Below are positions 1,940-31,681 of a stretch of DNA of 32,000 nucleotides, piece after piece (positions within the stretch are counted from its first letter, which is position 1; the number at the start of each line of letters is the position of its first letter). The notes beneath the pieces are model-generated. The model saw nothing but the letters and a program-made list of their open reading frames with translations. It did not search any database and was not told the DNA's origin. The position numbers and the translations under genes were made by a program. This stretch comes from Candidatus Electronema aureum (GTDB lineage: Bacteria; Desulfobacterota; Desulfobulbia; Desulfobulbales; Desulfobulbaceae): positions 3,235 to 35,234 of the forward strand of contig NQJD01000026.1 in assembly GCA_004284765.1 (NCBI GenBank). Reading direction: 5' to 3'.

Positions 1940-2161
1940 TTTTGATGCAAGAGACCTCTTTGTTATCCGCGTCAAGCACACCGTGAAGGGTTTGATCGAA
2001 CATTTTTAACCTTGCGAATGCGGGATCACGGCGTGGCCGGGCCATTGACACTGCCCAAGTTCCAGCAGGAAAAACTGGAGATGCCGGTGCATTATCTACG
2101 ATCTACGTCGCGGACTCTTTGATCCAAGGGGCAAAACGGCATCCGGCTCTCCTTGCATTGG

Positions 2162-2207
2162 TCATTTATATTCCAGTTGAGATAAATCTCAACTGGAATA
2201 TAAATGA
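2162..2207. repeat. 46-bp perfect AT-rich palindrome (22-bp arms, 2-nt centre) in a divergent intergenic region
   Basis: TCATTTATATTCCAGTTGAGAT aa ATCTCAACTGGAATATAAATGA, read directly. It lies 56 bp upstream of the ATG at 2263, and a CATAAT hexamer follows at 2213-2218. Confidence 0.9.
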
Positions 2208-2262
2208 TGACTCATAATACAGACCGGCTCAACCTTATCAACCTTTGCTTGAGGAGCATCTG

Positions 2263-2631
2263 ATGGACATTTTTACTTCTGCGATCATGGCTGCGCTGGG
2301 CAATTTAGGCGTAAAGGCGGTTGGCGATGCCTATGAGGGTGTAAAAGCACTGGTTCAGCGCAAGTTCGGCGCGGACCATAAGATGACCAAAGCGATTGAA
2401 GAGCTTGAGCAAGAGCCTGACTCGGACGGCTGGAAGCTCGTTCTGCAAGAGGCAGCGAAAAAAGCTGGTGCGGACAAGGATGCCGAGATTATGAAGGCGG
2501 TTCAAGCATTGCTGGATGCGGTGAAGGCGCAGCCGGGTGGCGAAAAAGCTATTCAGCAGATCATCAATCAGCAGGTGAGCGGCAGCGGACACATCTTTTC
2601 TGGCAGTGGAAATGTAACCGTCACCAAATAA
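2263..2631 (+). CDS. Small all-helical protein with a C-terminal G-rich motif shared with the downstream NLR (Bell/HeLo-analogous effector candidate)
   Basis: GAGGAG RBS at 2251-2256, 6 nt before the ATG at 2263. N-terminal hydrophobic helix MDIFTSAIMAALGNLGV, then charged helices. The C-terminal INQQVSGSGHIFSGSGNVTVTK is encoded at 2563-2628. The stop overlaps the next start (TAATG). Confidence 0.75.
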   Translation: MDIFTSAIMAALGNLGVKAVGDAYEGVKALVQRKFGADHKMTKAIEELEQEPDSDGWKLVLQEAAKKAGADKDAEIMKAVQALLDAVKAQPGGEKAIQQIINQQVSGSGHIFSGSGNVTVTK

Positions 2632-5180: not shown

Positions 5181-5200
5181 GGGCGTTTCGCGAAACGCCC
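5181..5200 (+). terminator. GC-rich hairpin immediately after the NLR stop (REP-like; possible terminator)
   Basis: GGGCGTTTCG/CGAAACGCCC is a perfect 20-bp palindrome starting 1 nt after the stop. The trailing sequence ttacatt is only weakly T-rich. Confidence 0.45.
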
Positions 5201-5290
5201 TTACATTATACAAAGAAAATGGTTACGGTGCGCCGTACCTTTCTGATCTCCTTAGAGATATCCCAACGGTGCAAGTATGAGACAACTCAG

Positions 5291-6139
5291 ATGAATGCTA
5301 ACCAACACACCGGCACCTTACACATCGTTGCCACGCCCATTGGCAACCTCAGCGATATTAGCCTGCGAATGCGTGAGGTCTTAGCCACTGCGGATATTAT
5401 CGCCTGCGAAGATACCCGACACACGCGCAAGCTGCTTTCTCACTTGAATATCAGCGCAAAGTTGACCAGCTGTCACCGCGATAACGAACAACAGAAAGCC
5501 ACGCAACTTGTCGAGCGGTTGCTCTCAGGCTCGACAGTGGCGTTGGTCTCTGATGCTGGGACACCCGGTCTTTCCGATCCAGGCGCAGTGCTGGTACGAG
5601 CAGCGCGGGCCGCTGGAATTACGGTAGTACCGGTGCCAGGGCCATCAGCCTTGGCAACTGCCCTTTCTGTCGCGGGGTTAGATGATTCCAACTTTTACTT
5701 TGGCGGCTTTCTCTCAGCGAAAAAGAGCGAGCGCCGGAAGCAGCTCACCGCGCTCAAGTCTTTACCTTGCCCGATGATCTTTTATGAGGCACCGCATCGG
5801 ATAGAGGCTGCGTTGCAGGACTGCTTCGATATCCTCGGCGACCGACAAGCTCAAGTCTTCCGCGAGCTAACCAAGCTCCATGAAGAACATAAAGCCGGGA
5901 TGCTGTCCGCGCTGATAGAGCAAATGAGCGGCAAGGTACTGGGGGAATTGGTGCTGCTCGTCAGTGGTGCAGAGGAAAAGCAGCATGAGGAACGGCCTGA
6001 AAATCTTGACGAGTTGATTCTCTGGCACCGTGATCAAGAAGGCAGTTCGCTCAAAGACGCAGCAAAGCAAATTGCCGATGCCTTAGATATGCCTAAATCG
6101 CAAGTGTATCAGCGCGCCCTAAGCCTCTGGCAGACATGA
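5291..6139 (+). CDS. rsmI: 16S rRNA (cytidine1402-2'-O)-methyltransferase RsmI
   Basis: N-terminal GTLHIVATPIGNLSDISLR...IACEDTRHTRKLL tetrapyrrole-methylase-fold signature typical of RsmI. The ATG at 5291 (MNANQH) is preferred over 5219. Confidence 0.88.
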   Translation: MNANQHTGTLHIVATPIGNLSDISLRMREVLATADIIACEDTRHTRKLLSHLNISAKLTSCHRDNEQQKATQLVERLLSGSTVALVSDAGTPGLSDPGAVLVRAARAAGITVVPVPGPSALATALSVAGLDDSNFYFGGFLSAKKSERRKQLTALKSLPCPMIFYEAPHRIEAALQDCFDILGDRQAQVFRELTKLHEEHKAGMLSALIEQMSGKVLGELVLLVSGAEEKQHEERPENLDELILWHRDQEGSSLKDAAKQIADALDMPKSQVYQRALSLWQT

Positions 6140-7011
6140 GCGGACGTTGGCGAACGCATCTCTTGATGCTGCTGACCACAATGCTGGTCTCAACCTCGTT
6201 CACCGTGGGCAAAGCCATTGCGGGCGGTATGGACCCAGCCGTGCTGACCCTCCTCCGCTTTGCCTTGGCAGCCCTGCTCTTTCTGCCCTTTGTCGCGTGG
6301 AAATACGGTCTGTACCTGCCGAAGAGAAAGCAGTTCGTTGGCTACGCCTGCATCAGCTTTACCCTCACCGGCTTCTTCTGGCTGATGTTTCTCTCCTTGC
6401 AAAGTACCACCGCCTTGAACACCGGGGTCATTTACACCTTGGTACCGGGATTGTCCGGCCTTTACAGTGCCGTCCTGCTCCGCGAGCGATTAGGCAAATA
6501 CCGACTCATGGCTTTAGTTCCGGCCACCGTCGGAGCGATCTGGGTCCTGTTTCACGGCAGCTGGCAACAGCTGTTGGCTTTTAATCTCAAGTCCGGCGAC
6601 CTGATTTTCTTCTGCGGCTGCCTGCTGATGGCGTTCTACACCCCGCTTGTTAAACTCTTCCATCGCGATGAGCCGATGTCAGTAATGACCTTCTGGATAC
6701 TGATCACCGGGTGCGGATGGCTGCTGCTCTTCTTTAGCCAACGATTGATGGCTATGGTTTGGGCAGATGTTCCGGCGCAGGTCTGGAGAGGCATTGCCTA
6801 TTTGGCGATCTTCTCAACCATGATCACCTTCTTCCTCAGTCAGCTTTGCACCTTGCGCCTTGGCCCGACCAGAGTCATGGCGTATAGCTACCTCTACCCG
6901 CCTTTTATTATGCTGATCGAATGGGCGTATGGCCAGCCGCTGCCGCCTGTGCAGATGCTACCGGGCTTAGTGTTGATTGTTGCAGCAATGCTGATTGTCC
7001 AGCAGGAGTGA
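6136..7011 (+). CDS. DMT superfamily (EamA-type) transporter
   Basis: About 10 hydrophobic helices in a two-fold EamA-like organisation. The start overlaps the rsmI stop (ATGA). Confidence 0.75.
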   Translation: MSGRWRTHLLMLLTTMLVSTSFTVGKAIAGGMDPAVLTLLRFALAALLFLPFVAWKYGLYLPKRKQFVGYACISFTLTGFFWLMFLSLQSTTALNTGVIYTLVPGLSGLYSAVLLRERLGKYRLMALVPATVGAIWVLFHGSWQQLLAFNLKSGDLIFFCGCLLMAFYTPLVKLFHRDEPMSVMTFWILITGCGWLLLFFSQRLMAMVWADVPAQVWRGIAYLAIFSTMITFFLSQLCTLRLGPTRVMAYSYLYPPFIMLIEWAYGQPLPPVQMLPGLVLIVAAMLIVQQE

Positions 7012-7043
7012 CGTTGTTCGTTAGCTGCCCCTTGAATGCAAAC

Positions 7044-7083
7044 AAAAAAGCGATGCCGCCTCCGTAGAGACAGCATCGCTTTT
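7044..7083. terminator. Bidirectional rho-independent terminator between convergent EamA and groEL genes
   Basis: The stem AAGCGATGC ... GCATCGCTT is flanked by an upstream A-run and a downstream T-run. Confidence 0.7.
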
Positions 7084-7117
7084 ACTTTTCTTGAGCAGAT
7101 AGAAAAGATGCGACGAC

Positions 7118-8791
<1,674 letters not shown>

Positions 8792-8831
8792 TTATAGCTT
8801 GTGATTAAAACAGGATAGTCGCAGAACAGGC

Positions 8832-9122
8832 TTACGCTTCGATGATGCCGAGAATGTCCTCTTCACGCATGATGAGGTATTTTTCGCCATCCAACTTCAC
8901 ATCGGTGCCGCCGTATTTGGAGAACAGTACCCGGTCGCCAACCTTGACATCCATAGCAATCCGCTCGCCTGCATCATTCCGCTTGCCTGCGCCAACAGCA
9001 ACGACCTTGCCTTCAGCCGGTTTTTCTTTGGCAGAGTCGGGGATGATGATGCCGCCTGCGGTTTTCTCTTCCTCTTCCACTCTCTTGACCAGAATGCGGT
9101 CATTCAACGGACGAATATTCAT
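8832..9122 (-). CDS. groES: Co-chaperonin GroES
   Basis: [35 protein letters not shown]... with an AGGAGG RBS at 9129-9134 (minus strand). The ORF-track N-terminal extension to 9179 is discarded. Confidence 0.97.
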
Positions 9123-9240
9123 GGACAATCCTCCTGTTACAGAATTTAATAGGGAGTTTAGGCCGACCTCCTTCTGCATGATGTCGGCTCACGTTTACTT
9201 GCTCGGACAGAAAATTAATTCCTGTCATCTGACTGCGCCA

Positions 9241-9272
9241 AACAATAGGAACGGATCAGGGGAAATCAAGGG
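9241..9272 (-). promoter_or_regulatory. Possible sigma-32-type heat-shock promoter for groES-groEL
   Basis: The minus strand reads CCCTTGATT, then 14 nt, then CCTATTGTT. This is a good -35 match and only a partial -10 match to CTTGAAA-N13-14-CCCCATNT. It lies about 120 nt upstream of the groES ATG. Confidence 0.3.
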
Positions 9273-9329
9273 CGAGAGGGAGAAAAAAATGCTTTTCCCT
9301 TCCTTCATGCTGGAATAAAAAGAAAAATA

Positions 9330-10403
9330 TTAGATAGCGCGTACTAACCAGCCGTGCGTATCGGGCAGTATTCCGCGCTGCATCTGCTGAATGCCATCAA
9401 AGAGCCGCTGGGCTATTGGCCCGGTCTTGCCGCCACCGATAATGATGGAACGTTCTTGGTAGAGGAATTCGCCCACCGGCGCGATGACCGCCGCTGTGCC
9501 GGAGCCAAAAGCCTCAGTCAGCGAGCCATCTGCTGCTGCCGCGATGATTTCATCCATGCTGATTCGCCGCTCGTTCGCCTTGATACCCCAGTCTGCTGCG
9601 ACTTTCAAAACAGTGTCGCGAGTGATACCAGGTAGGATGGTGCCGCCTAACGGTGGCGTGACCAATTCGCCGTTGATGACAAAGAAGATGTTGGAAGTAC
9701 CCACTTCCTCGACATATTTATGTTCTGCCGCATCTAACCACAGCACTTGGGTGCAGCCTTTTGCTTTGGCTTCAGCAAAGGCCTTGAGTGAGGCAGCATA
9801 GTTGCCACCGGTTTTAGCTTCGCCTACTCCGCCCGCTGTAGCCCGAACATACTGGTCTTCCACGTAAATCTTGGTTGGTTTAAAACCTTCAGCGTAGTAA
9901 GCACCCACTGGGCAGCAGATGATGAAAAAGAGGTATTCATTCGCAGGATGCAGGCCAACCGCAGCCTCGGTAGCAATCATCGCTGGGCGAATGTAGAGCG
10001 ATGCACCCGAAGCCTGCGGCACCCATGCCCGGTCGAGTGCAACCATCTGCTTCAGGGCCTCTAACACCTCTTCCGCCGGAATCTCTGGCATACACATGCG
10101 GACAGCAGAGCGGTTCAGGCGATTCAGGTTATCCAAAGGCCGGAAAAGTAGAACAGAGCCGTCTGCGCCGTGATAGGCTTTCAGTCCTTCAAAAATCTCC
10201 TGACTGTAATGCAGAACCATTGCCGCTGGGTCGAGCGTGAACGGGCCGTAGGGTTTGATCTCCGCATCGTGCCAGCCTTCTTTGCTATTCCAGCTCATCA
10301 CAAACATGTGATCCGTGAAATGCCGACCGAAACCGAGGTTATTCCAGTCTGGCTTTGCCTTCAGCGTCTCTGTTTTGCGCAGCGTAATTTCCAGCTTCTT
10401 CAT
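9330..10403 (-). CDS. ilvE: Branched-chain amino acid aminotransferase (long form)
   Basis: Class IV aminotransferase features across the full length (FGRHFTDHMF, EGLKAY, GEAKTGGNYAAS, GITR). Confidence 0.9.
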   Translation of the reverse strand: MKKLEITLRKTETLKAKPDWNNLGFGRHFTDHMFVMSWNSKEGWHDAEIKPYGPFTLDPAAMVLHYSQEIFEGLKAYHGADGSVLLFRPLDNLNRLNRSAVRMCMPEIPAEEVLEALKQMVALDRAWVPQASGASLYIRPAMIATEAAVGLHPANEYLFFIICCPVGAYYAEGFKPTKIYVEDQYVRATAGGVGEAKTGGNYAASLKAFAEAKAKGCTQVLWLDAAEHKYVEEVGTSNIFFVINGELVTPPLGGTILPGITRDTVLKVAADWGIKANERRISMDEIIAAAADGSLTEAFGSGTAAVIAPVGEFLYQERSIIIGGGKTGPIAQRLFDGIQQMQRGILPDTHGWLVRAI

Positions 10404-13315: not shown

Positions 13316-14320
13316 TCACTGCGCGAGGCTCTTTTTGTTTCGTCCTTTCTGCCAGATCGCCACCAACAAGGAACATGCGGCCAGCACAAGCGTAACTTGC
13401 TGAAAAATAGTGGCCTCAACCAACACCCAAGCTGTAGCCAAAAGCGGCAGCAAGGCTGCTCGCACCGTCAGTCGGATCAATCCGTGTTGGGCGATGAAGT
13501 CAGCAATCGGCGGTGAAGCCTGATAGTACCATGCAACAAAGGCCCGGCCTGGCGTGTTCGTCAGCAGGCGCAGATCACGAAATTTCCGCAAGAGGACTAC
13601 CTGTGGCTCTAAAGCACTGCCGTAGGCGGCTGTGGCAATAAAGCAACCTCCCCCGCCGCTGTCACTGCTACTACTGGTGCTGGTGGTACTACTGCTGCCG
13701 ATGCTGCTAATGCTCGTTTTTTTCATGCTCAGAATTTGCTCGGCAAAGCCTTGAGCAATAATTTGCGCACCTGTCCTTGTTGGATGTATGCCATCAGTGG
13801 TGATGTTCTTCCAATCGTTGATCACCCTACCGTAGGTATCAACCAAGACAACTTGGTTACTGGCTGCAACATTGACAATCGAGGGGTTGTAGTTTTCCGG
13901 TGCATAGTTCGATTGAGAATTCGGAGTGATGGTGGACATAATAGGCACTGCTCCGGCATTTTTGGCATGTTGCGCCATATTCTGCAAGTTGAAGCTCGTG
14001 GCTGAAGGAGAAATGCCCTCTACCACATCGTTAGCTCCTTCCATAATCACTGCATACTTTGGTTTGTTTGCTGCAAGCACAGTATCAATACGTGAAATAC
14101 CAGCTAAGGTATCTTCACCGCCAACGCCTGCATTAACCACGGTAAAAGAGGCTGAATCAAGCTTGGACTTCAGATAAACTGGATAGCCTTCATTGACTGT
14201 TGGATATCCAGCAGTGATGGAATCACCAAAACAGAGCACCACATCGGCAGCTCGGCAGTCAGTCATGCCAAAACAAAACAGTAGAATACCTGTGGCAATA
14301 CACCAGCTTCTTTTCTTCAT
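13316..14320 (-). CDS. Secreted SGNH/GDSL hydrolase with a Ser/Thr linker and a C-terminal [14 protein letters not shown] anchor-like domain
   Basis: Signal peptide, then SGNH block I (FGDSITAG), block II (GVGGEDT), GANDV and a C-terminal DGIHP. This is followed by [27 protein letters not shown] and two terminal hydrophobic helices. Confidence 0.8.
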
Positions 14321-15136: not shown

Positions 15137-15769
15137 CTATTTACCCTGCACCTTTGTGAGAGCCTCGGCAAAGCCCTCTGCAATCATCTTGGAGCCGGTA
15201 TCATTGGGATGGATACCATCAAAAGTGATACTCCTCCAGCTTGAGGCCATCCTGCTGTAGGTGTTCACCAGCGTGAAACGGCCTTTATACGCCATCTGAA
15301 TGATGGAGGGATTGTAATTCTCCGGCACATAGCTTCGGCGGGCCGTGTTGGGAGTGATGGTGGACATGATCGGTATGCCGCCCGCTCTTTTGACCTGTAG
15401 GGCCATATTGTTGAGATCATAGGTAGTCGTTGATGGTGATATCCCCTCCACCACATCATTAGCACCCTCCATGATCACCACGTACTTCGGCCTGTTCGCA
15501 GCAAGCACCTTCTTCATTCGCGCCACGCCGCGATAGGTATCCTCGCCGCCTAAACCGGCGTTAACGACATTCAAGGAGGAGCTTTTCATGGATTGGAGAT
15601 AAACTGGATAGCCAATTGCCTTGTATCCCGCAGTGATGGAATCGCCAAAGCAGACCACAGTTTCTTTCGAAGCTAGAGGCGGGGGTGGCGGTGGCGGCTC
15701 AGGAGGAAGGACAACTGGTTCAGTATGGTTGAGCAAGGTGAGCAAAATGCCTACAAGCTGTTTATTCAT
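15137..15769 (-). CDS. SGNH/GDSL hydrolase, paralog of 13316-14320 lacking the C-terminal anchor
   Basis: [31 protein letters not shown] and DGIHP are collinear with the upstream paralog. A poly-Pro linker PPEPPPPPPP follows the leader. The ATG at 15769 is preferred. Confidence 0.8.
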   Translation of the reverse strand: MNKQLVGILLTLLNHTEPVVLPPEPPPPPPPLASKETVVCFGDSITAGYKAIGYPVYLQSMKSSSLNVVNAGLGGEDTYRGVARMKKVLAANRPKYVVIMEGANDVVEGISPSTTTYDLNNMALQVKRAGGIPIMSTITPNTARRSYVPENYNPSIIQMAYKGRFTLVNTYSRMASSWRSITFDGIHPNDTGSKMIAEGFAEALTKVQGK

Positions 15770-19638: not shown

Positions 19639-19716
19639 GTCAAGTTCTGGGTCATGGTCTTCATGGGCAGCGGTTCTCTCCTGCGGCTCAATCTCAGCCC
19701 TCAGTGGGAGCGTTTC

Positions 19717-19808
19717 TGGTACCGTAATACCAGCGAGGTTGGTATTACGGTAGGAGCGAGGCTGGTACCATGGTACCAGCGACGTTAGTACCATGGTACC
19801 AGAAATGC
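19717..19808. repeat. Four tandem 23-bp units, each centred on a TGGTACC-N2-GGTACCA-type palindrome
   Basis: Units start at 19717, 19740, 19763 and 19786. Unit 3 contains the perfect 16-bp palindrome TGGTACCATGGTACCA. By hand count the other units match unit 3 at 16-19 of 23 positions. Confidence 0.9.
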
Positions 19809-19924
19809 TCCCTTCTGCTTGTGAGATTATCTCATAAGCAGGTGTGGGTTGCAAGGGCGCAAGTGTTTCGATCAGTAAGCTGGGCTAATAGACTTCGTGC
19901 AGAAGCCGCAGAGTGCAGCGATGC

Positions 19925-19984
19925 AACAAACAGGGCGAACACAGGGGTTCGCTCCTACACCACGCTGGGCGGCATCTCTCGTAG
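19925..19984 (+). repeat. REP-like intergenic element, copy A (hairpin GGGCGAAC-ACAGGG-GTTCGCTCC)
   Basis: About 60 bp, roughly three-quarters identical by eye to 31621-31681. Shared blocks are AACAAAnAGGGCGAACACAG and GCGGCATCTyyCGTAG. Confidence 0.7.
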
Positions 19985-20022: not shown

Positions 20023-22098
<2,076 letters not shown>

Positions 22099-22188
22099 TC
22101 AGCTCGGTGAATGAGGGACGTAGGCTGTCGCCGCTACTATATATGGAGTTTAAAAAGTTGTACAGAGGAATCAGCGAGACTGGCAGCC

Positions 22189-22211
22189 CTACCAGAACCA
22201 CTTTAGCTCGG
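22189..22211 (-). repeat. Left direct repeat of the island: orphan copy of the last codons of a DUF4105-type gene (AELKWFW-stop)
   Basis: CTACCAGAACCACTTTAGCTCGG matches 25541-25563 at 21 of 23 positions and 28794-28816 at 20 of 23 (hand counts). Confidence 0.75.
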
Positions 22212-22235
22212 CAAGTATCCAACGGATAAAATCTA

Positions 22236-22265
22236 TTGACAATCAGGTAGAGTATTTTGTATAGC
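22236..22265 (+). promoter_or_regulatory. Sigma-70-like promoter candidate for the three-gene operon
   Basis: TTGACA (22236-22241), an 18-nt spacer, then TATAGC (22260-22265). It lies about 100 nt upstream of the ATG at 22364. Confidence 0.4.
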
Positions 22266-22363
22266 CTTGGCTATTGATGCAACATCCCGCCAAGTTTCTT
22301 TGGCGAGTGAGAGGGTGCCGAATCTCGGTGAAAATCAGATTGTCAAGGAGGAAGCACATAGCT

Positions 22364-22780
22364 ATGCAGTGTGATTTTTACGACGCTCATGACCGTCACT
22401 GGCAGGATGCCGAGCAGCTTTTTCAGGCCCAGCGTTGGGCCAATGCGGATCATTTGTATGGCGTTGCAGCAGAGTGTGGTTTAAAGGCACTGATGCTGAA
22501 GTTCGGCATGGTTTTCAATTCAAACAAGGATATGCCTAACGATAAGAAAGATAGGGAACATGCCAATGGTATCTGGGCGCGTTATGAAAGTTACCGCTCA
22601 GGACATCAACAAGGTGTAAGCTATGGCCTGCCGTCAGCTAACCCGTTCCAAGATTGGCATGTCTCTCAACGTTATGCCCACCAAGCGGATTTTGATATAA
22701 TCCGTGCCGAATCGCACCGAAAAGGAGCCGAGTTGGTTTGCAAGCTCATAAAACAAGCTAAAACGGATGGGTTGATATGA
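22364..22780 (+). CDS. Small helical protein, HEPN-like fold candidate (138 aa)
   Basis: AAGGAGGA RBS at 22345-22352. N-terminal HEPN-like helices HWQDAEQLFQAQRWANADHLYGVAAECGLKALML and a later WHVSQRYAHQ. A canonical Rx4-6H motif is not evident. Confidence 0.6.
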   Translation: MQCDFYDAHDRHWQDAEQLFQAQRWANADHLYGVAAECGLKALMLKFGMVFNSNKDMPNDKKDREHANGIWARYESYRSGHQQGVSYGLPSANPFQDWHVSQRYAHQADFDIIRAESHRKGAELVCKLIKQAKTDGLI

Positions 22781-24072
22781 TTACCTTTGATCAAGTTCTG
22801 CCGAAAGTTCATGAGATTCTGAAGCCGCACTCAGACACGATAAGCCGGATACAGCCTGTGATTGTCAATAGAGACCTTAATGGCCGGGTGCGTTTGATTA
22901 TCCGAGAAACGATGAAAGGTAATTCAGTAGCGATGGCGGCAATCAAGACGATTGCCGCCGAACTCGCAGAGCAGCTAAAGCCGCATTCTTTCCCCGCTGG
23001 ACAAGTCGTCCTGTTTGAAGATGATGATATGGAGAGTCTGCTTGCTGCTGCGCCAACTTTTCCCTTGGAGGACATTGAAGGCGTTTACGTTATGGACCGA
23101 CTGGCCAATGAAAGCCGCTGGGCCAGCATTGCACCGCTTTCATTAGGTGTTCCTCGTGCGGTATTCTTCTCCATTAAGGGCGGTGTTGGCCGTTCCACCG
23201 CTATGGCGGTCTTGGCCTGGTCGCTGGCGCAGGCGGGCAAGCGGGTGCTGGTACTGGATTTGGATCTTGAATCACCTGGACTGTCTTCAGCCTTGCTGCC
23301 AGCCGAACGACAGCCCGCCTATGGCATTGCCGATTGGCTGGTCGAGGATTTAGTGGACAACGGCGATGCTGTATTTGAAGACATGATTGCCATCAGCACA
23401 CTTTCCCATGATGGCGAAATAGACGTGGTGCCAGCACATGGCCGCAATCCAGGCGAATACATTTCCAAGCTTGGTCGGGTCTGGATGCCCAAGATAGACA
23501 GTGACGGCAAGCGTGAAAGCTGGTCGCAACGTCTTGGACGGCTGCTGAACAAACTGGAAGAACACTTGCAGCCTGATGTCATTTTGATTGATTCACGCTC
23601 TGGCATTGATGAAGTGGCCTCAAGCTGCGTCACGGACTTGGGAGCCAGCTTGGTACTGCTCTTTGCCATCGATGGCGGACAGACTTGGTCGGGCTACCAA
23701 ATGCTGTTTGGTCATTGGCATCAAGCTGGGGTTGCCCGGGAAATTCGGGAACGTTTGCAGCTCGTGGGTGCGATGATTCCTGAAACCGATGCCGCTGACT
23801 ACTTCAGCAGTCTGTGCGAAAAGAGCTGGGATATGTTTTCCAACTCTCTTTATGACGAAGTGCCGCCCGGTGTCCCTATGGGTGAGCTGTTCAATTTTGA
23901 CAACAGTGATGAGACTGCTCCGCACTTCCCTTGGCCCATCCGCTGGCATCGGGGATTTGCTGCCCTGTCCTCTCTGCACTCGCACCTTGAGACGATAGAT
24001 GAAGTCCAAGTAGAGACGGTTTTCGGTTCCTTTATCAAAAGCTACGCTCTCTGCGGGGGCAGAATCTCATGA
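22777..24072 (+). CDS. ParA/MinD-like P-loop ATPase with a variant Walker A KGGVGRST and a 125-aa N-terminal domain of unknown type
   Basis: FFSIKGGVGRSTAMAVLAWSLAQAGKRVLVLDLDLESPGL (deviant Walker A with Arg in place of the second Lys). Walker B-like VILIDSRSG. The start overlaps the upstream stop (ATGA). Confidence 0.8.
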   Translation: MITFDQVLPKVHEILKPHSDTISRIQPVIVNRDLNGRVRLIIRETMKGNSVAMAAIKTIAAELAEQLKPHSFPAGQVVLFEDDDMESLLAAAPTFPLEDIEGVYVMDRLANESRWASIAPLSLGVPRAVFFSIKGGVGRSTAMAVLAWSLAQAGKRVLVLDLDLESPGLSSALLPAERQPAYGIADWLVEDLVDNGDAVFEDMIAISTLSHDGEIDVVPAHGRNPGEYISKLGRVWMPKIDSDGKRESWSQRLGRLLNKLEEHLQPDVILIDSRSGIDEVASSCVTDLGASLVLLFAIDGGQTWSGYQMLFGHWHQAGVAREIRERLQLVGAMIPETDAADYFSSLCEKSWDMFSNSLYDEVPPGVPMGELFNFDNSDETAPHFPWPIRWHRGFAALSSLHSHLETIDEVQVETVFGSFIKSYALCGGRIS

Positions 24073-25505
24073 CTGAAGTTAATCTAATCCGTGATGCCAT
24101 TATTGCTGCTCTTCCTGCGGAGACATCAAATTACGGTGAAGTGCCAAAAACGGGTCATTTGTATGTGCCGCCAGCTCATTTGAAAGCTCTGCGGTTAGAA
24201 AGCTGTCTGGTGGTCGGAACCCGCGGCGTAGGTAAATCGTTTTGGACCGCAGCATTGGGTTCTGAATCCATTCGCGCTGCTCTTGGACAATCAGTCTCTG
24301 CCCTGAAAACTGCCCGCGTTTATATCAGCTTCTCAGGAGTGGACAGAATTGAGGATTATCCCAATGCTGACATTTTTTCCCGCTTTTCAGAACAAGAGAA
24401 ATCGTTCTATGACCTTTGGCGATGTGTCATCCTGCGCTGGCTTGCCAAAGAAATTCTCAATCAGCAGATTCCTAATGATAGATGGGAGGACACAGCGGAC
24501 TGGCTGAAAAGCAATCCTGAAGATGCGGCCCGCATCGTTCAGCAGTCCAGCCAGAAATTGAATGATGACAATCAGCATGGGTTGTTTCTGTTTGATGCCT
24601 TGGATCGAACCAGCCAGAACTGGAAGACGATGGACAATATTGTTCGTGATCTGTTGCGAACAGCTCTCTGGCTTAAGTCTTATCCAAAACTCAGCGCAAA
24701 GATTTTCCTGCGGGAAGATCAGTTCGAGCGCACCGTGACTGATTTCCCCGATGCCTCGAAACTTCTGGCAACCAAAGCCGAATTGAATTGGGCACAGCAT
24801 GACCTGCACGGACTGCTGTGGCAGATGCTGATTAACGCCCCTGATAAGCATGGAGAATGCCTGCGGGCGGTTTATCAGAGAGTGACGGGAGCCGCTGAAG
24901 TTGAAATGAATAGCGGCTGGTGGCTGGCAGAAGAGATTAAACGGGAAAACACGATCCAGCGCAATCTGTTTAAAGCCCTAGCCGGGCCGTGGATGGGGAA
25001 AGATCGACGGCGGGGTGTGCCTTACGTATGGTCGGTCAGCCATTTAGCAGACGGGCGAGGTCGCACTTCGCCCCGCTCTTTCCTTGCTGCAATCCGTCAA
25101 GCTGCAGAAGATTCACAGGAGCGTTATCATGACTACTCGTTGGCATTGCATTACGAAAGCATTAAACGAGGAATTCAGAAAGCATCTGATATCCGTGTCA
25201 GTGAAATGGCTGAAGATTATCCTTGGGTGCGTACTTTTTTGGAACCATTAAAAGGATTGACAGTACCCTGTGAGTTCGATCTGGTATTGGAACGATGGAT
25301 ATCCAGCTTTCCATCTGGCCCTGAAAGCGCACACGGCTCTGGACTCCCTCCGCAACATGCAGCACGGGGCTGGGAAGGAGTGAGAGAAGACCTACTGAGG
25401 TTAGGTCTCTTTGAAGCGAAGAAGGATGGCCGTATCGACATGCCCGACCTCTATCGTGTCGGTTTCGGTTTAGGTCGGCGAGGTGGAGTGAAGCCTAAAA
25501 GTTAA
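24069..25505 (+). CDS. P-loop NTPase (AAA/STAND-like) with a C-terminal helical region
   Basis: Walker A VVGTRGVGKSFW and Walker B GLFLFDALDR. The start overlaps the upstream stop (ATGA). Confidence 0.75.
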   Translation: MTEVNLIRDAIIAALPAETSNYGEVPKTGHLYVPPAHLKALRLESCLVVGTRGVGKSFWTAALGSESIRAALGQSVSALKTARVYISFSGVDRIEDYPNADIFSRFSEQEKSFYDLWRCVILRWLAKEILNQQIPNDRWEDTADWLKSNPEDAARIVQQSSQKLNDDNQHGLFLFDALDRTSQNWKTMDNIVRDLLRTALWLKSYPKLSAKIFLREDQFERTVTDFPDASKLLATKAELNWAQHDLHGLLWQMLINAPDKHGECLRAVYQRVTGAAEVEMNSGWWLAEEIKRENTIQRNLFKALAGPWMGKDRRRGVPYVWSVSHLADGRGRTSPRSFLAAIRQAAEDSQERYHDYSLALHYESIKRGIQKASDIRVSEMAEDYPWVRTFLEPLKGLTVPCEFDLVLERWISSFPSGPESAHGSGLPPQHAARGWEGVREDLLRLGLFEAKKDGRIDMPDLYRVGFGLGRRGGVKPKS

Positions 25506-25540
25506 AAATTCGGCATATTGTCTATCTATCGCTGAAAGCA

Positions 25541-25625
25541 CTACCAGTACCACTTCAGCTCGGTGGAGATGGTTGCGTTCTCCGCTTGCTCAATGCCCGA
25601 TGAATAAGAAGAGGTCAAAGGAAAT
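25541..25625 (-). pseudogene. Orphan 3' fragment (about 28 codons) of a DUF4105-family paralog; its first 23 bp form the right direct repeat of the island
   Basis: The minus strand reads ...PFPLTSSYSSGIEQAENATISTELKWYW-stop. The intact gene at 28794 ends ...TSLFIGIEQAESANVSAELKWFW-stop. No upstream coding body exists: the AlgJ/X-like gene stops at 25682. Confidence 0.75.
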
Positions 25626-25681
25626 GGTGTCGATGCTGCACGGCCTGCACGGACTAAGGTACTCAGTGAGTAATACTTGCT

Positions 25682-27280
25682 TCATTGCTTTGTTGTTGGC
25701 ACAGCCTTGATGGTCAGAGAGCGGAGGAGATAGGTTCCAGTCGTTGTACCGGGATCAATGCGGATTAGCCCTTTGACATGAGGATGAGGAAGACGGAAGA
25801 GCAGCCGGTTTGCACCTTTGCGCACGTTCTGCTCGACTCTATGCTGCGGCCTGATCGTTCCCTGATCGTCAGCTGTAGTGAAATAGAGGGCAAAGTCTGT
25901 ATCCTGCGGAGCATCTACATTGACCTCCACGAGATAGCGTTCGCCGTCTGCGGGTGGAGTGAACGGCACGACAAAATAGGGATCGCTGCTGGTAGCTTGC
26001 AGCAACAGGCCGTCAGTGCTTGGTTGCAGGCGCAGATCATGCCGAAGCGACACGCTGTTGATATCCAGTGAGTTATCAACCCGCAGCCGCACCTTGTCCG
26101 AGGCCGCATACTGTGCTTCCAACACCGCAGCTGTCAGCTGTGGATCAGGCGCGATCCGTTGCATGTTCCGCGCTACCCATACGTCAAAGACAATATCAGG
26201 TTTCACATGTGAAATAAGTTGCTTCAGTTGGTCGAACGGAACGTTTGGGGAGTAGATAACTCTTTTGAAGCGTTCATTGAAGTACCGTCGAAGGCCATTG
26301 CCAAAGGAATCATGAATAACTAATGCTGTCAACTTCTGCTGAGGGCAGCCGTTGGTAGAAGGTGCTTTAGCAGCGGCCTTCCTGTCTGGTAGCAATGCTA
26401 ATTCCTGCGCCGATAGAGGTTGATCAGTACCAGCGCAGGGCTGTTTTATGTGAACAACAGGCACTGTTTCTCCCACTTCTTTCTCTAAGTGCATGAGTCG
26501 AGCTAAGTCACCAGAGAACGGTACGTTGTCTATAGAGAATTCATCCTTCGAGATTGCTCTCATCTGCGCTTCAGGGAACCATTGCTTGCAATATGCAATC
26601 ATCTGGTTGAAAGCCAGCATGGCTCCTTCGTTTGTCCAATGCGTATCCGTCTTAAAGTAAAGCTGTCTTTCTTCTTTGTGTCTCTTGAAGAGAGCATACA
26701 GATTGACGGTATCATGAAACGTGACTTCTTTGTTTGCAGCAGCAATGAATTCCTCATAGAAAGAAAGCCCTCTGCTGCGTTGTATCCGGTTCGGCAGATA
26801 AGCATCATACACAGTTATTTTATTTGGTACAGGAATAAACAAATAGCGCACTCCGATGCGGGATAGCCAGTCTCGGCGGTCAGCGAAAAGAGCGAGGTAC
26901 TCATCCATCGAGATTGCATCCGCCTGCCGCTGCCCGTAATAATCATCAATGACGGATTCTCCAGTATAAAAGAACCAGCCTTCTTTCCCTTTAATAACTA
27001 CTGGAGAAGGAGACAGATGGAGTACGTTTAAAGAGATTGCATTAGATGCCCTAATTAAACTGTCACGCAAACCGAAATGATCCTGATAAAAGATGTCAAA
27101 CTGCTTCGGAAAGGCAAGCATTCCTTGAAGATTACCCTTCACTTTTGGGAACGTTGCTAACTTTCTCTTTTCCGCTGTGGATATTTCTTTGCGAGGGCTG
27201 ACGAGGAAAAGTCCCAAGGGCACGATGAGAACGAGCAGAAAGAGAGTGGAAAGAACTGCTGAGTATATCCGATTCCCCAT
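25682..27280 (-). CDS. AlgJ/AlgX-like (DHHW-type SGNH-like) polysaccharide O-acetyltransferase with a C-terminal beta module
   Basis: N-terminal TM anchor. FKTDTHWTNEGA (the D-x-H-W catalytic motif of AlgJ/AlgX). It lies 4 nt downstream of the MBOAT gene. Confidence 0.75.
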   Translation of the reverse strand: MGNRIYSAVLSTLFLLVLIVPLGLFLVSPRKEISTAEKRKLATFPKVKGNLQGMLAFPKQFDIFYQDHFGLRDSLIRASNAISLNVLHLSPSPVVIKGKEGWFFYTGESVIDDYYGQRQADAISMDEYLALFADRRDWLSRIGVRYLFIPVPNKITVYDAYLPNRIQRSRGLSFYEEFIAAANKEVTFHDTVNLYALFKRHKEERQLYFKTDTHWTNEGAMLAFNQMIAYCKQWFPEAQMRAISKDEFSIDNVPFSGDLARLMHLEKEVGETVPVVHIKQPCAGTDQPLSAQELALLPDRKAAAKAPSTNGCPQQKLTALVIHDSFGNGLRRYFNERFKRVIYSPNVPFDQLKQLISHVKPDIVFDVWVARNMQRIAPDPQLTAAVLEAQYAASDKVRLRVDNSLDINSVSLRHDLRLQPSTDGLLLQATSSDPYFVVPFTPPADGERYLVEVNVDAPQDTDFALYFTTADDQGTIRPQHRVEQNVRKGANRLLFRLPHPHVKGLIRIDPGTTTGTYLLRSLTIKAVPTTKQ

Positions 27281-27284
27281 AGTT

Positions 27285-28706
27285 TCAGAACCGGAAGTAA
27301 ATAAATGGGTTGTAGGAATTCACCGCCAGCGAGGCGGCGGAGTAGAGCAGTATGGCGGTGATCAGCAGCAGCTTTACGGCCTGTGCAGGTAGGGCCAGTA
27401 TCGCAGTGGTTGGCTGCAAATTCTTTCGCAACCAAGGATAAAGAGGCGCACTCAACATAATTCCAGCAGCAAGGGAACAGCACCACCTGCTGTCAAGCCT
27501 CATGCTGATCTGCGGCAACATTGTGTCAGCCTTGGCAAATCCGTACATAGCTGCAAAATAGCTCCCCACATCAGCCAGCCGCTCAAGCCGAAAGAGCACC
27601 CAGCCATTACCGATCACGAAGAGTGTGTACATATGCTGCCAGAACGGATGCTTCTGATCCAGCATCTTGCCGAAACGTCCGCGTTCTACGACAAGAAAGA
27701 CTCCGTACAGCAGTCCCCAAAGGATGAAGTTCCAACTTGCGCCGTGCCAGAGGCCGCAGAGCAAGAAGACAATAAGCAGATTGAAACCAGTGCGTACCGC
27801 TCCGTGCCGGTTGCCACCGAGCGGAATGTAGAGATAATCGCGCAACCAAGTAGAGAGAGACATATGCCATCGCCGCCAAAACTCTCGTACCGAGCGGCTG
27901 ATGTAGGGATAGTTGAAATTTTCTAAGAGATGAAAGCCGAACATTCGGCCTAAGCCGATGGCCATATCCGAATAGCCTGAAAAATCAAAATAGATTTGCA
28001 AACTATAGCAAAGGACACCCAGCCAAGCAGTGCCAGTTGAAAGTGTTTCTGCGGGTAGAGTGAAAATTTGATCAGCCAATTGACCCACGGAATTGGCGAT
28101 CAGCACCTTTTTTCCTAAGCCGAAGATGAAACGTTCTGCACCTGCGGCAAAGTCAGTGAGAGTAATTGTTCGTTGTTTAATCTGCTCGGCAATATCGTTG
28201 TAGCGGACAATAGGGCCAGCAATGAGCCGAGGAAAGAGAGAGAAATACAGTCCGATATACAGAGGATTCTTCTGGGCTGGATATTTCTGCCGGTAGATAT
28301 CAATCAGATACGACAGGGCTTCAAAGGTGAAAAAAGAAATGCCGATAGGCAGATGCACTTTCTCCAATACAAGATGCTCGATACCGAACTGAGTAAGAAG
28401 CGCATTGAAATTGGCAACGATAAAATTGGCATACTTAAAGAATCCTAGCAGACCAAGATTGACAGCCACTGCCACTGCCAAGACTAACTTCTCTGTTTTT
28501 CCTCGCCGACTGATCAGCAGACCGAAGAGGTAATTGATAAAAGCCGAGGCGATGAGGACGAACACGAAAAGTTGCTCGCCCCAGAAATAGAAAAGAATAC
28601 TGCCTGCCAGCAGGAGAACATTCCGTCCCCTTGCTCCAGCACAGAGATGCGCTGCCAAGATGATCGGCAGGAAAAAGAAAAGAAAAGTTATGGAGCTGAA
28701 AAGCAT
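27285..28706 (-). CDS. MBOAT family O-acyltransferase (AlgI/DltB-like)
   Basis: FWRRWHMSLSTWLRDYLYIPLGGNR with the conserved MBOAT His. Polytopic membrane protein. Confidence 0.9.
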   Translation of the reverse strand: MLFSSITFLFFFLPIILAAHLCAGARGRNVLLLAGSILFYFWGEQLFVFVLIASAFINYLFGLLISRRGKTEKLVLAVAVAVNLGLLGFFKYANFIVANFNALLTQFGIEHLVLEKVHLPIGISFFTFEALSYLIDIYRQKYPAQKNPLYIGLYFSLFPRLIAGPIVRYNDIAEQIKQRTITLTDFAAGAERFIFGLGKKVLIANSVGQLADQIFTLPAETLSTGTAWLGVLCYSLQIYFDFSGYSDMAIGLGRMFGFHLLENFNYPYISRSVREFWRRWHMSLSTWLRDYLYIPLGGNRHGAVRTGFNLLIVFLLCGLWHGASWNFILWGLLYGVFLVVERGRFGKMLDQKHPFWQHMYTLFVIGNGWVLFRLERLADVGSYFAAMYGFAKADTMLPQISMRLDSRWCCSLAAGIMLSAPLYPWLRKNLQPTTAILALPAQAVKLLLITAILLYSAASLAVNSYNPFIYFRF

Positions 28707-28793
28707 CGGCAGTTTCTTCCGGTTAAACAGGCAGCTAAAATTTTCGGCATTGTAGCGGAGAACCTACCAGAATGCAACTGTGGTATTTTGCAT

Positions 28794-30641
28794 TTACCAG
28801 AACCACTTCAGTTCGGCGGAGACGTTGGCACTCTCTGCCTGCTCAATACCAATGAACAAGGAGGTCTGTGCGGCGAATCCCCACTGGAGTTCCGCGCTGA
28901 CAAAGGGCTGCGCGTTGCCCTGATAGTCGGTAGTCTCTATCCCGGCCAGCAGGCGACCTTTGAGATTGCCATTCCCAGCAAGCAGACCAAGATGCGGGCG
29001 CAGGCGGAGATACGGCTCTACGCTGTGCGCGGCTGCGTCAGTCATGGCGTAGGCTGTAAGCTGCGGGCTAATCTTCCAAGCACGTCCTGCCCCGAACGCA
29101 AAGAAGGCATCGTAGTCATCAGCATCTTGGGCAAGGCCCGTGCGCAGTTGCCACGACCAAGGATTTTCCCCGTCTGCTGTGATGAAGTCCGTCTTGATTG
29201 TGCGGATTCTGATCAGATCGAGCTGATCAAGAAAGAAGGTATCACCGATGCTGACGGCTGCGTCGAACACGGCTAACTCGTTGTCTTCCAAGCCGTTTCG
29301 CCCTAATGCCTCTTGCACAAAGGCTGCACCATGCAGGCGGAGATAGCTGCCTCGCTGCTCTTCATGACCAAAGCCAATGCTCGTCAGCATCGGGCGGTTG
29401 CCTTGGGCAGGCGAGTCCAGCGCAGGCACTTCCTTCAGAGGCTCGGTACTGGGCGGCAGGAGAAAGCGGGCAGGCAGGAACCGGTTCTTCGCTGCCTTGG
29501 TTGCTGCGCTGGGCGTGGGCTGCTCGGCAGTTAAGCGATAGTTGCTATACGCCAGCAGGGTGTCTAAGACCTCTGCTTGCCGGTCTTGCTTCAGGTGCGC
29601 GAGCTGATCAGGCAGAGCTGTCGGCCCTTGCTGCATCACTGCCTGCGTAGCTGCCTGTTCTTCCGGCTTGAGTAGGCTGAATTGATGATACAGTTTGCGC
29701 TGGGCTGAGGGAATGAAGCGTACCGCCTTGATCAAGCCCGGTTGTCCGACTGCCTTCCTTGCCTGATCAATGTCTTCGAGACGATGAAAGGTTTCAGTTG
29801 GCACATACCAGAAGCGGGCGTTCGTCAGCAGTGGTTCGTCGATAACCAGCTCCAACAGCTCGGACAAGCGGAAGGCGCAGTTCTTGTCGAGGAAGTAATA
29901 GGTGAACTTCTTTCCCAGCACCTCCCAAAGATGGAGGATCAGCAGTGTGCGCTGCGTATCAGAGAGCCGCAGCTCGTAGTCCCAGATATCGCGGAACTCA
30001 GTGCGGGAATAGACCAAATCTTGGGTGTAGAAATAGCGGTCAGAGAAACCCGCCTCATAGCCTCCACCGAGGCCGCGCAGGATGTACCGCCAGACCGGTT
30101 CATCTGGTGGCACCAAGGCACCGTAGCTGACCGTTAGATCGAACATCCCGGCTTGATCATCCTGTGCGCCAGTGTTGAGCTTGAGCAGCGAATGGCCAAA
30201 GACTGAGGCTGGATTGCCGAGATAGCCGCTGACGAGAAAGAGGCTGATTGACTGCACCTTATCCGGCAGCGACCAGCGGGCAAAGGTTGGACACTGCGGC
30301 GGAGTAAGGTTGTAGCCCGGCAGACTGATCTGCTGGGAGAGCCAGTAATAGCGGGCTGGAAAGCGGCAGCGAGCGTGGCTGTCCCCGTCCTTTGGCCAAG
30401 GCGCGTTGTAGGCAGCGAGATCAGCGCGTAGCTCGGCTTGAGGATCATGCTGACCGTCAGGGGAGAGAAAGAAATCCTCGGTGAGTATCTCGCTCTGCCT
30501 GCTGTCGCCATAATGCAGCAGCTTCAGCCACGTAGGATGCTGGGCAAGATGTTCAAGCTGGGCAGAAGACAGGGCAAAAGCAACAGACGTAGGCAGTAAG
30601 CAACTACACAGCAGAGCAGCGATAAAATATCGGCGAAGCAT
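28794..30641 (-). CDS. DUF4105 (Lnb N-terminal-like) periplasmic domain protein with a C-terminal beta-rich region
   Basis: Signal peptide, then HPTWLKLLHY and ASVFGHSLLKL motifs that I associate with DUF4105. The C-terminus ends in an aromatic residue (KWFW), as in outer-membrane beta-barrels. Confidence 0.6.
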   Translation of the reverse strand: MLRRYFIAALLCSCLLPTSVAFALSSAQLEHLAQHPTWLKLLHYGDSRQSEILTEDFFLSPDGQHDPQAELRADLAAYNAPWPKDGDSHARCRFPARYYWLSQQISLPGYNLTPPQCPTFARWSLPDKVQSISLFLVSGYLGNPASVFGHSLLKLNTGAQDDQAGMFDLTVSYGALVPPDEPVWRYILRGLGGGYEAGFSDRYFYTQDLVYSRTEFRDIWDYELRLSDTQRTLLILHLWEVLGKKFTYYFLDKNCAFRLSELLELVIDEPLLTNARFWYVPTETFHRLEDIDQARKAVGQPGLIKAVRFIPSAQRKLYHQFSLLKPEEQAATQAVMQQGPTALPDQLAHLKQDRQAEVLDTLLAYSNYRLTAEQPTPSAATKAAKNRFLPARFLLPPSTEPLKEVPALDSPAQGNRPMLTSIGFGHEEQRGSYLRLHGAAFVQEALGRNGLEDNELAVFDAAVSIGDTFFLDQLDLIRIRTIKTDFITADGENPWSWQLRTGLAQDADDYDAFFAFGAGRAWKISPQLTAYAMTDAAAHSVEPYLRLRPHLGLLAGNGNLKGRLLAGIETTDYQGNAQPFVSAELQWGFAAQTSLFIGIEQAESANVSAELKWFW

Positions 30642-31620: not shown

Positions 31621-31681
31621 AACAAAAAGGGCGAACACAGAAGTCGCGCCCCTACACTATGTATTGCGGCATCTTCCGTAG
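31621..31681 (+). repeat. REP-like intergenic element, copy B
   Basis: Aligns with 19925-19984 in the same orientation. Confidence 0.7.

Follow-up and report, generated by a model that had tools for sequence, protein, structure and literature searches.

What are the short direct repeats that flank a three-gene operon in the cable bacterium Candidatus Electronema aureum, and how did the operon come to lie between them? The window—i.e., the whole 32,000-nt stretch analyzed here—is part of the E. aureum chromosome OW818638.1, which is among the closed cable-bacterium genomes of PMC10030654. At positions 22189 and 25541 it carries two copies of a 23-nt sequence (23-mer) that enclose a small cassette of defense-type genes next to a HAD-like hydrolase gene, and both copies match the 3' end of a DUF4105/Lnb_N gene farther along the window. 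An initial annotation, made from the letters alone, took them for att-like scars of integration at the end of a paralogous DUF4105 gene whose body had later been lost. We consider it probable, if by no means secure, that recombination left the repeats as scars at a variable position within a locus for cell-surface polysaccharide modification, and that they arose as by-products of insertion and not as recognition sites.

The two repeats stand around the operon with the sequences and the match of 21 in 23 that had been claimed for them. When up to three mismatches were allowed, the window contained exactly three copies of the 23-mer (22189-22211, 25541-25563, and 28794-28816), every pair of which agreed at 21 of 23 positions, and no match arose in 100 dinucleotide-preserving shuffles. 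Translated on the minus strand, the left copy reads ELKWFW-stop, the right copy ELKWYW-stop, and the copy in the intact gene ELKWFW-stop. All three correspond to the last seven codons and the stop of a DUF4105/Lnb_N gene, whose homologues across cable bacteria terminate in ELKW[FY]W; flanking homology and translations agree on this identity, as the initial annotation had it. It is all but certain that the 23-mer has to do with the cassette borders and is neither a chance match nor a dispersed repeat. The contrary reading could appeal only to the family-wide conservation of the C-terminal ELKW[FY]W motif, but no copy is expected by chance in the window, flanking homology traces every copy to a DUF4105 3' end, and among the 79 HAD loci fetched first the 23-mer was found only at the DUF4105 stop of Electronema sp. 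PJ. It was also absent from IMG/VR and from 80 other, metagenomic loci of the same operon type, so that the search for it at the borders of other islands, as first suggested, found nothing in these two sets. We rejected a chance or dispersed repeat on the strength of the shuffles, the 79 HAD loci, and IMG/VR.

The three genes between the repeats make up a candidate anti-phage operon, the PADLOC candidate defense system PDC-M28, with full-length matches to its A, B, and C profiles, and form in E. aureum a 3.3-kb operon antisense to the DUF4105 gene. The cassette and its borders contain the following features, where L numbers denote loci used for comparison.

20023-22083, minus strand: HAD-like hydrolase of 686 aa, the left anchor of the cassette (Pfam Hydrolase, PF00702).
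22084-22188, minus strand: HAD upstream region, with a promoter-like TGTACA-17-TATAGT (22164 to 22136) from a consensus scan.
22189-22211, minus strand: left 23-mer, an orphan DUF4105 3' end (ELKWFW-stop), by homology to the empty sites L166 and L174.
22212-22363, plus strand: cassette leader, with a TTGACA...TATAGC block kept in L082 and L085.
22364-22780, plus strand: PDC-M28A, 138 aa (PADLOC PDLC04558, E 7.6e-57; start set after the L080 gene call).
22777-24072, plus strand: PDC-M28B, a ParA/MinD-like P-loop ATPase of 431 aa (PADLOC PDLC04559, E 6.3e-184; Pfam CbiA, ParA).
24069-25505, plus strand: PDC-M28C, a putative STAND-like NTPase of 478 aa (PADLOC PDLC04561, E 1.7e-205).
25506-25540, no strand: cassette tail, whose outer ~9-13 nt may belong to the duplicated target.
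25541-25616, minus strand: right copy, a DUF4105 3' fragment of 76 nt (ending in IEQAENATISTELKWYW and the stop) with a frameshifting 1-nt insertion.
25608-25616, minus strand: junction microhomology GACCTCTTC, 9 nt, where the HAD 5' and DUF4105 3' alignments overlap.
25608-25685, minus strand: HAD' fragment, the decayed codons 1-27 of a second HAD copy, seen through its repeat with 21988-22014.

PDC-M28A had no Pfam match; PDC-M28C, which has 2164 homologues, gave weak AAA_16 and NACHT matches in Pfam, under the curated cut-offs. The TTGACA...TATAGC block in the leader is a putative promoter; the consensus promoter scan made no call for it on the plus strand. Searches with Pfam and PADLOC returned no recombinase or transposase match among the three cassette proteins or the neighboring genes, as the initial annotation had noted for the space between the repeats, and no recombinase was seen in or beside the cassette in five contig sets (the window, L082, L085, L084, and L173). 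At the cassette ends (22212 and 25540) no terminal inverted repeats turned up in the repeat search, and a transposon with terminal inverted repeats and a target-site duplication was ruled out on the lack of both inverted repeats and a transposase match. A tRNA or known-RNA gene as insertion target was likewise ruled out, the window being free of tRNA genes and Rfam families. The G+C content is 50.6% in the cassette and 52.8% in the window, so composition gives the cassette no foreign mark. We found no mention of PDC-M28 in the literature searched.

To see what the locus looks like without the cassette, we turned to relatives. A scan with the HAD protein gave 79 species-level loci, none of which had PDC-M28 upstream of HAD, and look-ups of DUF4105 and HAD homologues then gave the empty sites. 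Desulfobulbaceae usually have the order MBOAT, AlgX, an ~800-aa membrane protein, and HAD; at three true empty sites in relatives, DUF4105 is followed by 90-119 nt and HAD, and the repeat is present as a single copy.

L166/L167: DUF3015, DUF4105, 119 nt, HAD (HAD protein 94% identical to that of E. aureum).
L174: DUF4105, 119 nt, HAD (95% identical).
L168: ODP, DUF3015, DUF4105, 90 nt, HAD.

The empty site that had been predicted for related genomes thus exists; that the gene involved is a paralogue, as first supposed, found no support, and it is the syntenic DUF4105 gene, single copy at the locus in relatives. Homology between E. aureum and the empty sites starts within 2 nt of the outer edge of the left copy (22211 for L166 and 22213 for L174). 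The nucleotide alignment with L166 spans 2209 nt and is 91% identical, rising to 95-97% in its first ~320 nt; since it begins at 22211, the left 23-mer is the orphaned end of the syntenic DUF4105 gene. The adjoining 22084-22188 block is invariant in a five-genome alignment and, a 14-nt indel aside, 95-96% identical to the DUF4105-HAD intergenic region of L166; in these retained 105 nt HAD would keep its own promoter. The left remnant measures 23 nt in E. aureum, 31 nt in L082 (ATCTCCACTGAGCTGAAGCGGTTCTGCCAG), and 12 nt in E. nielsenii L001 (TGGTACTGGTAG), and decayed orthologous remnants are also found in L085 and L002. Conserved but decayed, the remnant speaks for a structure that is old.

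The closest PDC-M28C homologues, 79-85% identical, all lie on Electronema-like contigs, where the cassette is bordered as follows.

L082/L083: on the right, a HAD' ending near codon 84, ~25 nt from the M28C stop; on the left, a decayed remnant (31 nt in L082); HAD 97% identical to that of E. halotolerans.
L085: on the right, a HAD' ending near codon 84; on the left, a decayed remnant.
L173: on the right, an intact DUF4105 3' end (at least 53 codons, closing in LELKWYW-stop), 22 nt from the M28C stop; on the left, the contig ends earlier.
L084: on the right, a probable decayed DUF4105 stub beside ODP; on the left, the contig ends earlier.

L173 supplies the gene side that E. aureum lacks: taken with the empty sites and the left remnants, it gives a primary structure of intact DUF4105, cassette, orphan DUF4105 end, and HAD. 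The initial claim that the DUF4105 gene end is an insertion site with presence/absence polymorphism holds on this evidence. The cassette thus went into the very end of the syntenic DUF4105 gene, on its 3' side, and at least 23-31 bp were duplicated, possibly up to ~13 nt past the stop. When the stop-codon regions were set side by side, TGCTTTCAG and GGCTGCCAG past the stop codon were weakly similar, which places the end of the duplication only loosely. As target sequence at the DUF4105 end we considered the 32-40 bp ATCTCCACCGAGCTRAAGTGGTWCTGGTAGKGCTKYCAG.

The right junction of E. aureum has a more complex makeup. The right copy does extend past the 23-mer, as first annotated, but its homology covers 76 nt and not ~85 bp, with 25608-25625 belonging to a HAD 5' fragment. 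The 76-nt fragment is 82% identical to the DUF4105 ends of E. aureum and Electronema sp. PJ, its alignment containing one 1-nt and one 2-3-nt indel; against L166 it reaches 83% overall, with only ~65-70% (by eye) upstream of the last ~33 nt. The HAD 5' fragment adds a second repeat flanking the cassette (21988-22014 vs. 25608-25634, 25 of 27 positions). This HAD' is 92% identical to the HAD 5' end of E. nielsenii over 78 aligned nt with three gaps, closer than the E. aureum HAD is, and its ATG overlaps the TGA stop of AlgX as ATGA. The stop of the AlgX-like gene (25682-25684) does share its frame with the fragment, as first noted, yet this has no significance. Nor was a gene body simply lost here: the DUF4105 stub is joined via the 9-nt GACCTCTTC to codons 1-27 of a second HAD copy. 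Both parental sequences contain GACCTCTTC, HAD reading TTTGACCTCTTC and the PJ DUF4105 gene reading CAGACCTCTTT. Judged from these alignments, the two fragments were joined at a microhomology, GACCTCTTC, as is characteristic of illegitimate recombination.

Read in the direction of HAD, the order is DUF4105, MBOAT, AlgX, HAD' (codons 1-27), the 76-nt DUF4105 end, the antisense PDC-M28 operon, the 23-nt DUF4105 end, the 105-nt HAD upstream region, and HAD. The two kinds of repeat are not collinear, and therefore one simple duplication is insufficient to explain them. The left and right copies in E. aureum also have different histories and stem from different alleles: the left copy and its flank are L166-like (95-97%), the right stub is far less so upstream of its last ~33 nt, and HAD' is nielsenii-like. 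Could the repeats nevertheless have arisen within the lineage, through an ancestral tandem duplication of DUF4105...HAD, subsequent deletions, and a cassette landing in between, with no transfer across lineages? The DUF4105 end and the HAD 5' end do both occur twice, and M28C and HAD of E. aureum and L082 are each 85% identical as proteins, with loci collinear at ~78% nucleotide identity. We hold this origin to be very unlikely, since the duplicated pieces stand in the non-collinear order HAD5'-DUFend...DUFend-HAD5', the copies diverge more than the neutral flank does (82-83% for the right fragment vs. 95-97% to L166 for the left flank), HAD' is nielsenii-like and the working HAD 5' end L166-like, independent deletions with different end points would be needed in each lineage, and no relative has the full tandem duplicate. 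Short as they are, the alignments of HAD' and of the DUF4105 stub already point to alleles of other lineages.

The HAD gene itself carries traces of exchange. Its protein is 94% identical to that of L166, 95% to that of L174, and 91% to that of E. nielsenii, and the gene is mosaic, made up of L166-like and nielsenii-like blocks, the 5'-most of which is L166-like from the 23-mer on. In the tract from 22211 to ~21893, nearly all informative sites are L166-like; beyond it they are mixed, and the gene as a whole is mosaic. At the level of sequence comparison, the mosaic shows that homologous exchange at the locus has been frequent, without proving the particular event. A clean HAD breakpoint that would prove a donor/recipient model was not obtained; the gene is a multi-block mosaic and in this respect suggestive only.

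On the comparisons as a whole, we favor a scheme in which the scars would be left by recombination with incoming DNA. The cassette may have passed between Electronema lineages on DNA fragments that included parts of an earlier neighborhood; such fragments would have recombined homologously in HAD, the anchor, and illegitimately at their other end, by homology-facilitated illegitimate recombination or by single crossover of a circularized fragment, leaving the 5' end of HAD and the 3' end of DUF4105 partly duplicated. One homology-anchored event would cover the whole E. aureum structure. The incoming DNA would have started 76 nt before a DUF4105 stop codon and spanned the cassette and the orphan gene end into HAD; homologous recombination in HAD would then have been accompanied by an illegitimate join at GACCTCTTC with the resident HAD gene that follows AlgX (codon ~27-29). 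The mirror image, with MBOAT-AlgX-HAD' as the incoming DNA, would be topologically equivalent. L082 and L085 could follow the same scheme with a recipient in which the membrane-protein gene lay directly upstream of HAD. The cassette would now be a fixed chromosomal operon with its own promoter. Features of the scar type are indeed present, namely, a microhomology junction between unrelated sequences and a partial HAD duplication (codons 1-27 in E. aureum and up to codon ~84 in L082 and L085).

The age and turnover of the locus can be read from its occupied relatives. L082, the sole occupied relative locus with a full HAD gene, aligns collinearly with the window over both HAD and the cassette (~78% nucleotide identity), and its M28C and HAD proteins are each 85% identical to those of E. 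aureum. Because of this collinearity and the 79-85% identity of M28C, we regard the association of cassette and locus as old, not recent. Right junctions differ among lineages: an intact DUF4105 end in L173, the 76-nt stub in E. aureum, HAD' in L082 and L085, and a probable stub in L084. The score of the L084 stub was reached by 3-10 of 300 shuffles, depending on the reference, and a DUF4105-end remnant beside that cassette is thus probable.

E. halotolerans LOGT (L002) has flanks 97% identical to those of L082, but where L082 has 3.3 kb of HAD' and PDC-M28 (2421-5746), L002 has 9.3 kb (588-9855) in which two inverted 1.49-kb copies of an IS66-family element surround an Avs1b-like STAND gene (794 aa) and an 869-aa gene. 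Since 11 nt of the cassette leader are still present in L002, the cassette has been replaced there. L175/L176 (ODP, 240 nt, HAD) share an identical 125 nt beside ODP with L084 and then diverge, having neither stub nor cassette. In E. nielsenii (L001, 2-259), an 85-codon open frame in the direction of HAD runs into the retained WYW-stop of the DUF4105 end; this frame upstream of HAD gave no Pfam or PADLOC match, on a short contig. None of the comparisons showed precise excision: losses were imprecise (L175 vs. L084) or replacements (L002 vs. L082).

To the right of the junction, the window holds the remaining genes of the polysaccharide-modification locus and the intact DUF4105 gene.

25682-27280, minus strand: AlgX/AlgJ-like SGNH O-acetyltransferase (Pfam ALGX, DHHW).
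27285-28706, minus strand: MBOAT, AlgI-like (Pfam MBOAT).
28764-28802, minus strand: fourth, partial gene-end copy (8-9 nt), the copy itself at 28764-28772.
28794-30641, minus strand: intact DUF4105/Lnb_N gene, 615 aa (Pfam Lnb_N, formerly DUF4105, with DUF7843 and DUF7840), with the third 23-mer at 28794-28816.

The DUF4105-MBOAT arrangement is shared with L169 at 94% nucleotide identity. At the stop of the intact gene, a unique palindromic insert of 22 nt, ATGCAACTGTGGTATTTTGCAT (28772-28793), lies between two direct copies of the 8-nt TTCTGGTA (minus strand; 28795-28802 and 28765-28772), and the TAG that formerly ended the gene is found 30 nt beyond the TAA now in use. L169 has the same stop-codon structure, with 8-nt repeat and palindromic insert, and L173 has the related CTCTGGTAATGCAAC between the DUF4105 stop and the cassette. 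The 28764-28802 structure looks like a small insertion footprint. A transposon with termini like this footprint (ATGCAA...TTGCAT) was set aside as the source of the cassette, the motif recurring beside the L173 cassette and being absent at the left border. The swap of cargo in L002, the imprecise loss in L175/L176, the neighbor of the gene end in E. nielsenii, and this fourth copy together indicate that the last ~30 nt of DUF4105 have been hit repeatedly.

The initial annotation read the repeats as an attL/attR-like duplication around an island either decayed or mobilized in trans; put in full, this would be an integrative element akin to a cis-mobilizable element (CIME). A tyrosine or serine recombinase from elsewhere would have put a circular cassette into an attB of ~23-40 bp over the DUF4105 stop, the element bringing a replacement gene end. 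Direct repeats around the cassette and a single copy at empty sites fit this, as do the preserved target stop codon with an intact gene end beside the cassette in L173, the different sequence abutting the same gene end in E. nielsenii, the different cargo at the same site in E. halotolerans, and the extra 8-nt duplication with palindromic insert at the intact gene's stop. What makes it doubtful is that the expected machinery and regularity did not appear: there is no recombinase in or next to the cassette in the five contig sets, the length of the repeat is inconstant (12, 23, or 31 nt) and the right junction different in each lineage, the two E. aureum copies come from different alleles, losses are imprecise or replacements and never precise excisions, and the 23-mer is absent from IMG/VR and the 80 other PDC-M28 loci. 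The 152 nt and 35 nt between repeats and genes leave scant room for arm-type sites. DNA folds of the empty site and of all gene-end copies were no better than those of shuffled sequence, leaving the site without significant secondary structure, and a hairpin or structured recombination site at the stop codon was rejected on this ground. With no recombinase in the five contig sets, variable boundaries, and no precise excision, the att/recombinase mechanism first proposed finds no direct support, and we think it unlikely, though for the first insertion it keeps some probability.

Several observations nevertheless weigh against recombination scars as the full account. An intact gene, a cassette, and an orphan end would also be expected from site-specific integration into a gene 3' end, and on the gene side the target keeps its reading frame and stop, an outcome familiar from classical att integrations. 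Of the 1.8 kb of the gene, the final ~31 nt alone contain no fewer than three independent breakpoints: one at -23/-31 in the cassette lineages, one at -12 in E. nielsenii, and one marked by the 8-nt duplication at the intact stop. Random illegitimate recombination would not predict such a concentration, which hints at a preferred site; selection for the HAD promoter accounts for it on one side only. No single contig shows the whole primary structure, both junctions included, and the roles of donor and recipient are ones that we infer from the comparisons. A further thought is that the last ~30 bp of the cable-bacterial DUF4105 gene might serve as a dedicated attB for recombinase-less cassettes mobilized in trans. 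We think this unlikely; if true, it would account for the varied cargo at one gene end (PDC-M28, the IS66/Avs block, and the nielsenii open frame), for breakpoints confined to the final 31 nt, and for the 8-bp duplication with its 22-nt palindromic footprint.

PDC-M28 is not tied to this neighborhood elsewhere. DUF4105, HAD, and the 23-mer were lacking at the 80 other PDC-M28 loci and on the long contigs L170 and L172, and we rejected a general link of PDC-M28 to DUF4105/HAD, none being seen in the 80 metagenome loci or the two long contigs. Several of the other loci are flanked by duplications of 73-391 nt, 93-97% identical, of the adjacent host gene, among them the following.

L126: 4187-4259 and 7438-7510, a direct duplication of 73 nt from the 5' end of a MacB/FtsX permease gene.
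L146: 3688-4078 and 7487-7877, a direct duplication of 391 nt from the 3' part of a PP2C phosphatase gene.
L134: 3990-4131 and 7993-8136, a direct duplication of 144 nt.

The duplications at these three loci suggest a recurrent mode of insertion that generates duplications, and they hint more widely that, in unrelated bacteria, duplicates of 70-400 bp from a neighboring gene often border PDC-M28 cassettes. On L172, a contig of P0006, a PDC-M28 homologue of ~70% identity sits in a large defense island with Wadjet (JetB/C/D), SNF2 helicase, Schlafen/AlbA protein, and HTH_17 genes.

Other repeats in the window lie outside the cassette. A direct repeat of ~61 nt (77% identical; 19925-19984 and 31621-31681), located downstream of HAD and upstream of an SBP gene, brackets the 11.7-kb HAD-to-SBP block. 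It contains short G+C-rich, hairpin-like segments and has no Rfam match at the gathering threshold; a 140-nt version, 82% identical, is found in L168 (2115-2254) between DUF3015 and DUF4105. GGTACC-rich repeats at 19704-19812, comprising two 46-nt tandem copies and 52-nt inverted arms (73% complementary), occupy the 5' end of a small open reading frame downstream of HAD. Far from the cassette, a 46-nt near-perfect palindrome (95.7% self-complementary) spans 2162-2207, and a 20-nt perfect palindrome is found at 5181-5200. Short direct matches (17-35 nt, 86-100%) between 13923-14235 and 15351-15654 connect neighboring genes of the downstream GDSL-lipase region and probably reflect paralogous genes.

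The locus offers a worked case, at base level, of a defense cassette without a mobility gene entering a chromosome and then being shuffled, built on empty sites, an intact gene end in one relative, a clear microhomology joint, and different cargo in a close strain. It also carries a caution for automated callers of islands and att sites, in that repeats around a small island can pass for att sites even though recombination produced them incidentally. For cable-bacterial biology, the case points to a hypervariable spot within a locus of surface-glycan modification.

How does the locus compare with known systems? As a general concept, defense islands occupy hot spots between conserved core genes, and CIMEs bounded by att sites are known from Streptococcus thermophilus. 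The present locus resembles a defense-island hot spot in that close strains have differing cargo at one spot (PDC-M28, or an Avs1b-like gene with IS66 copies), but it lies inside a polysaccharide O-acetylation/modification locus and is marked by gene-end scars instead of an integrase or tRNA gene. With CIMEs and integrase-less islands (PMC5704250) it shares small size, the lack of a detected recombinase, direct repeats from a gene 3' end, and empty sites in relatives; it departs from CIMEs in having no known cognate integrative element or integrase, a variable repeat length, no precise excision in the comparisons, and copies from different alleles. The orphan 3' ends of Rhs, contact-dependent inhibition (CDI), and type VI secretion system (T6SS) effector-immunity loci (PMC5361080) provide another likeness, with a conserved upstream gene, incoming cassettes, and an orphan fragment per event, here three or four gene-end copies. 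Unlike in those loci, the cargo is a complete antisense candidate defense operon and not a toxin tip with its immunity gene, and the DUF4105 C-terminus is no variable toxin domain.

The closest parallel is with homology-facilitated illegitimate recombination (de Vries and Wackernagel 2002; Prudhomme et al. 2002; Meier and Wackernagel 2003; as cited in PMC5361080) and with single-crossover insertion, as when circular molecules containing part of a homologous locus were integrated in E. coli by single crossovers that left duplications of 109-950 bp (PMC3240628). In common with the former, there is one anchor (HAD), a second joint at a microhomology (9 nt here), and foreign DNA beside the anchor; in common with the 109-950-bp scars of the latter, the insert is flanked by partial duplications, variable in length, of the homologous locus. 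Homology-facilitated illegitimate recombination alone leaves the first insertion at the DUF4105 end unexplained, and, unlike in the experiments, the process is deduced here from comparative sequence. The kind of structure, recombination scars around a defense cassette in a variable locus, is already known, and the E. aureum locus is a new example of it.

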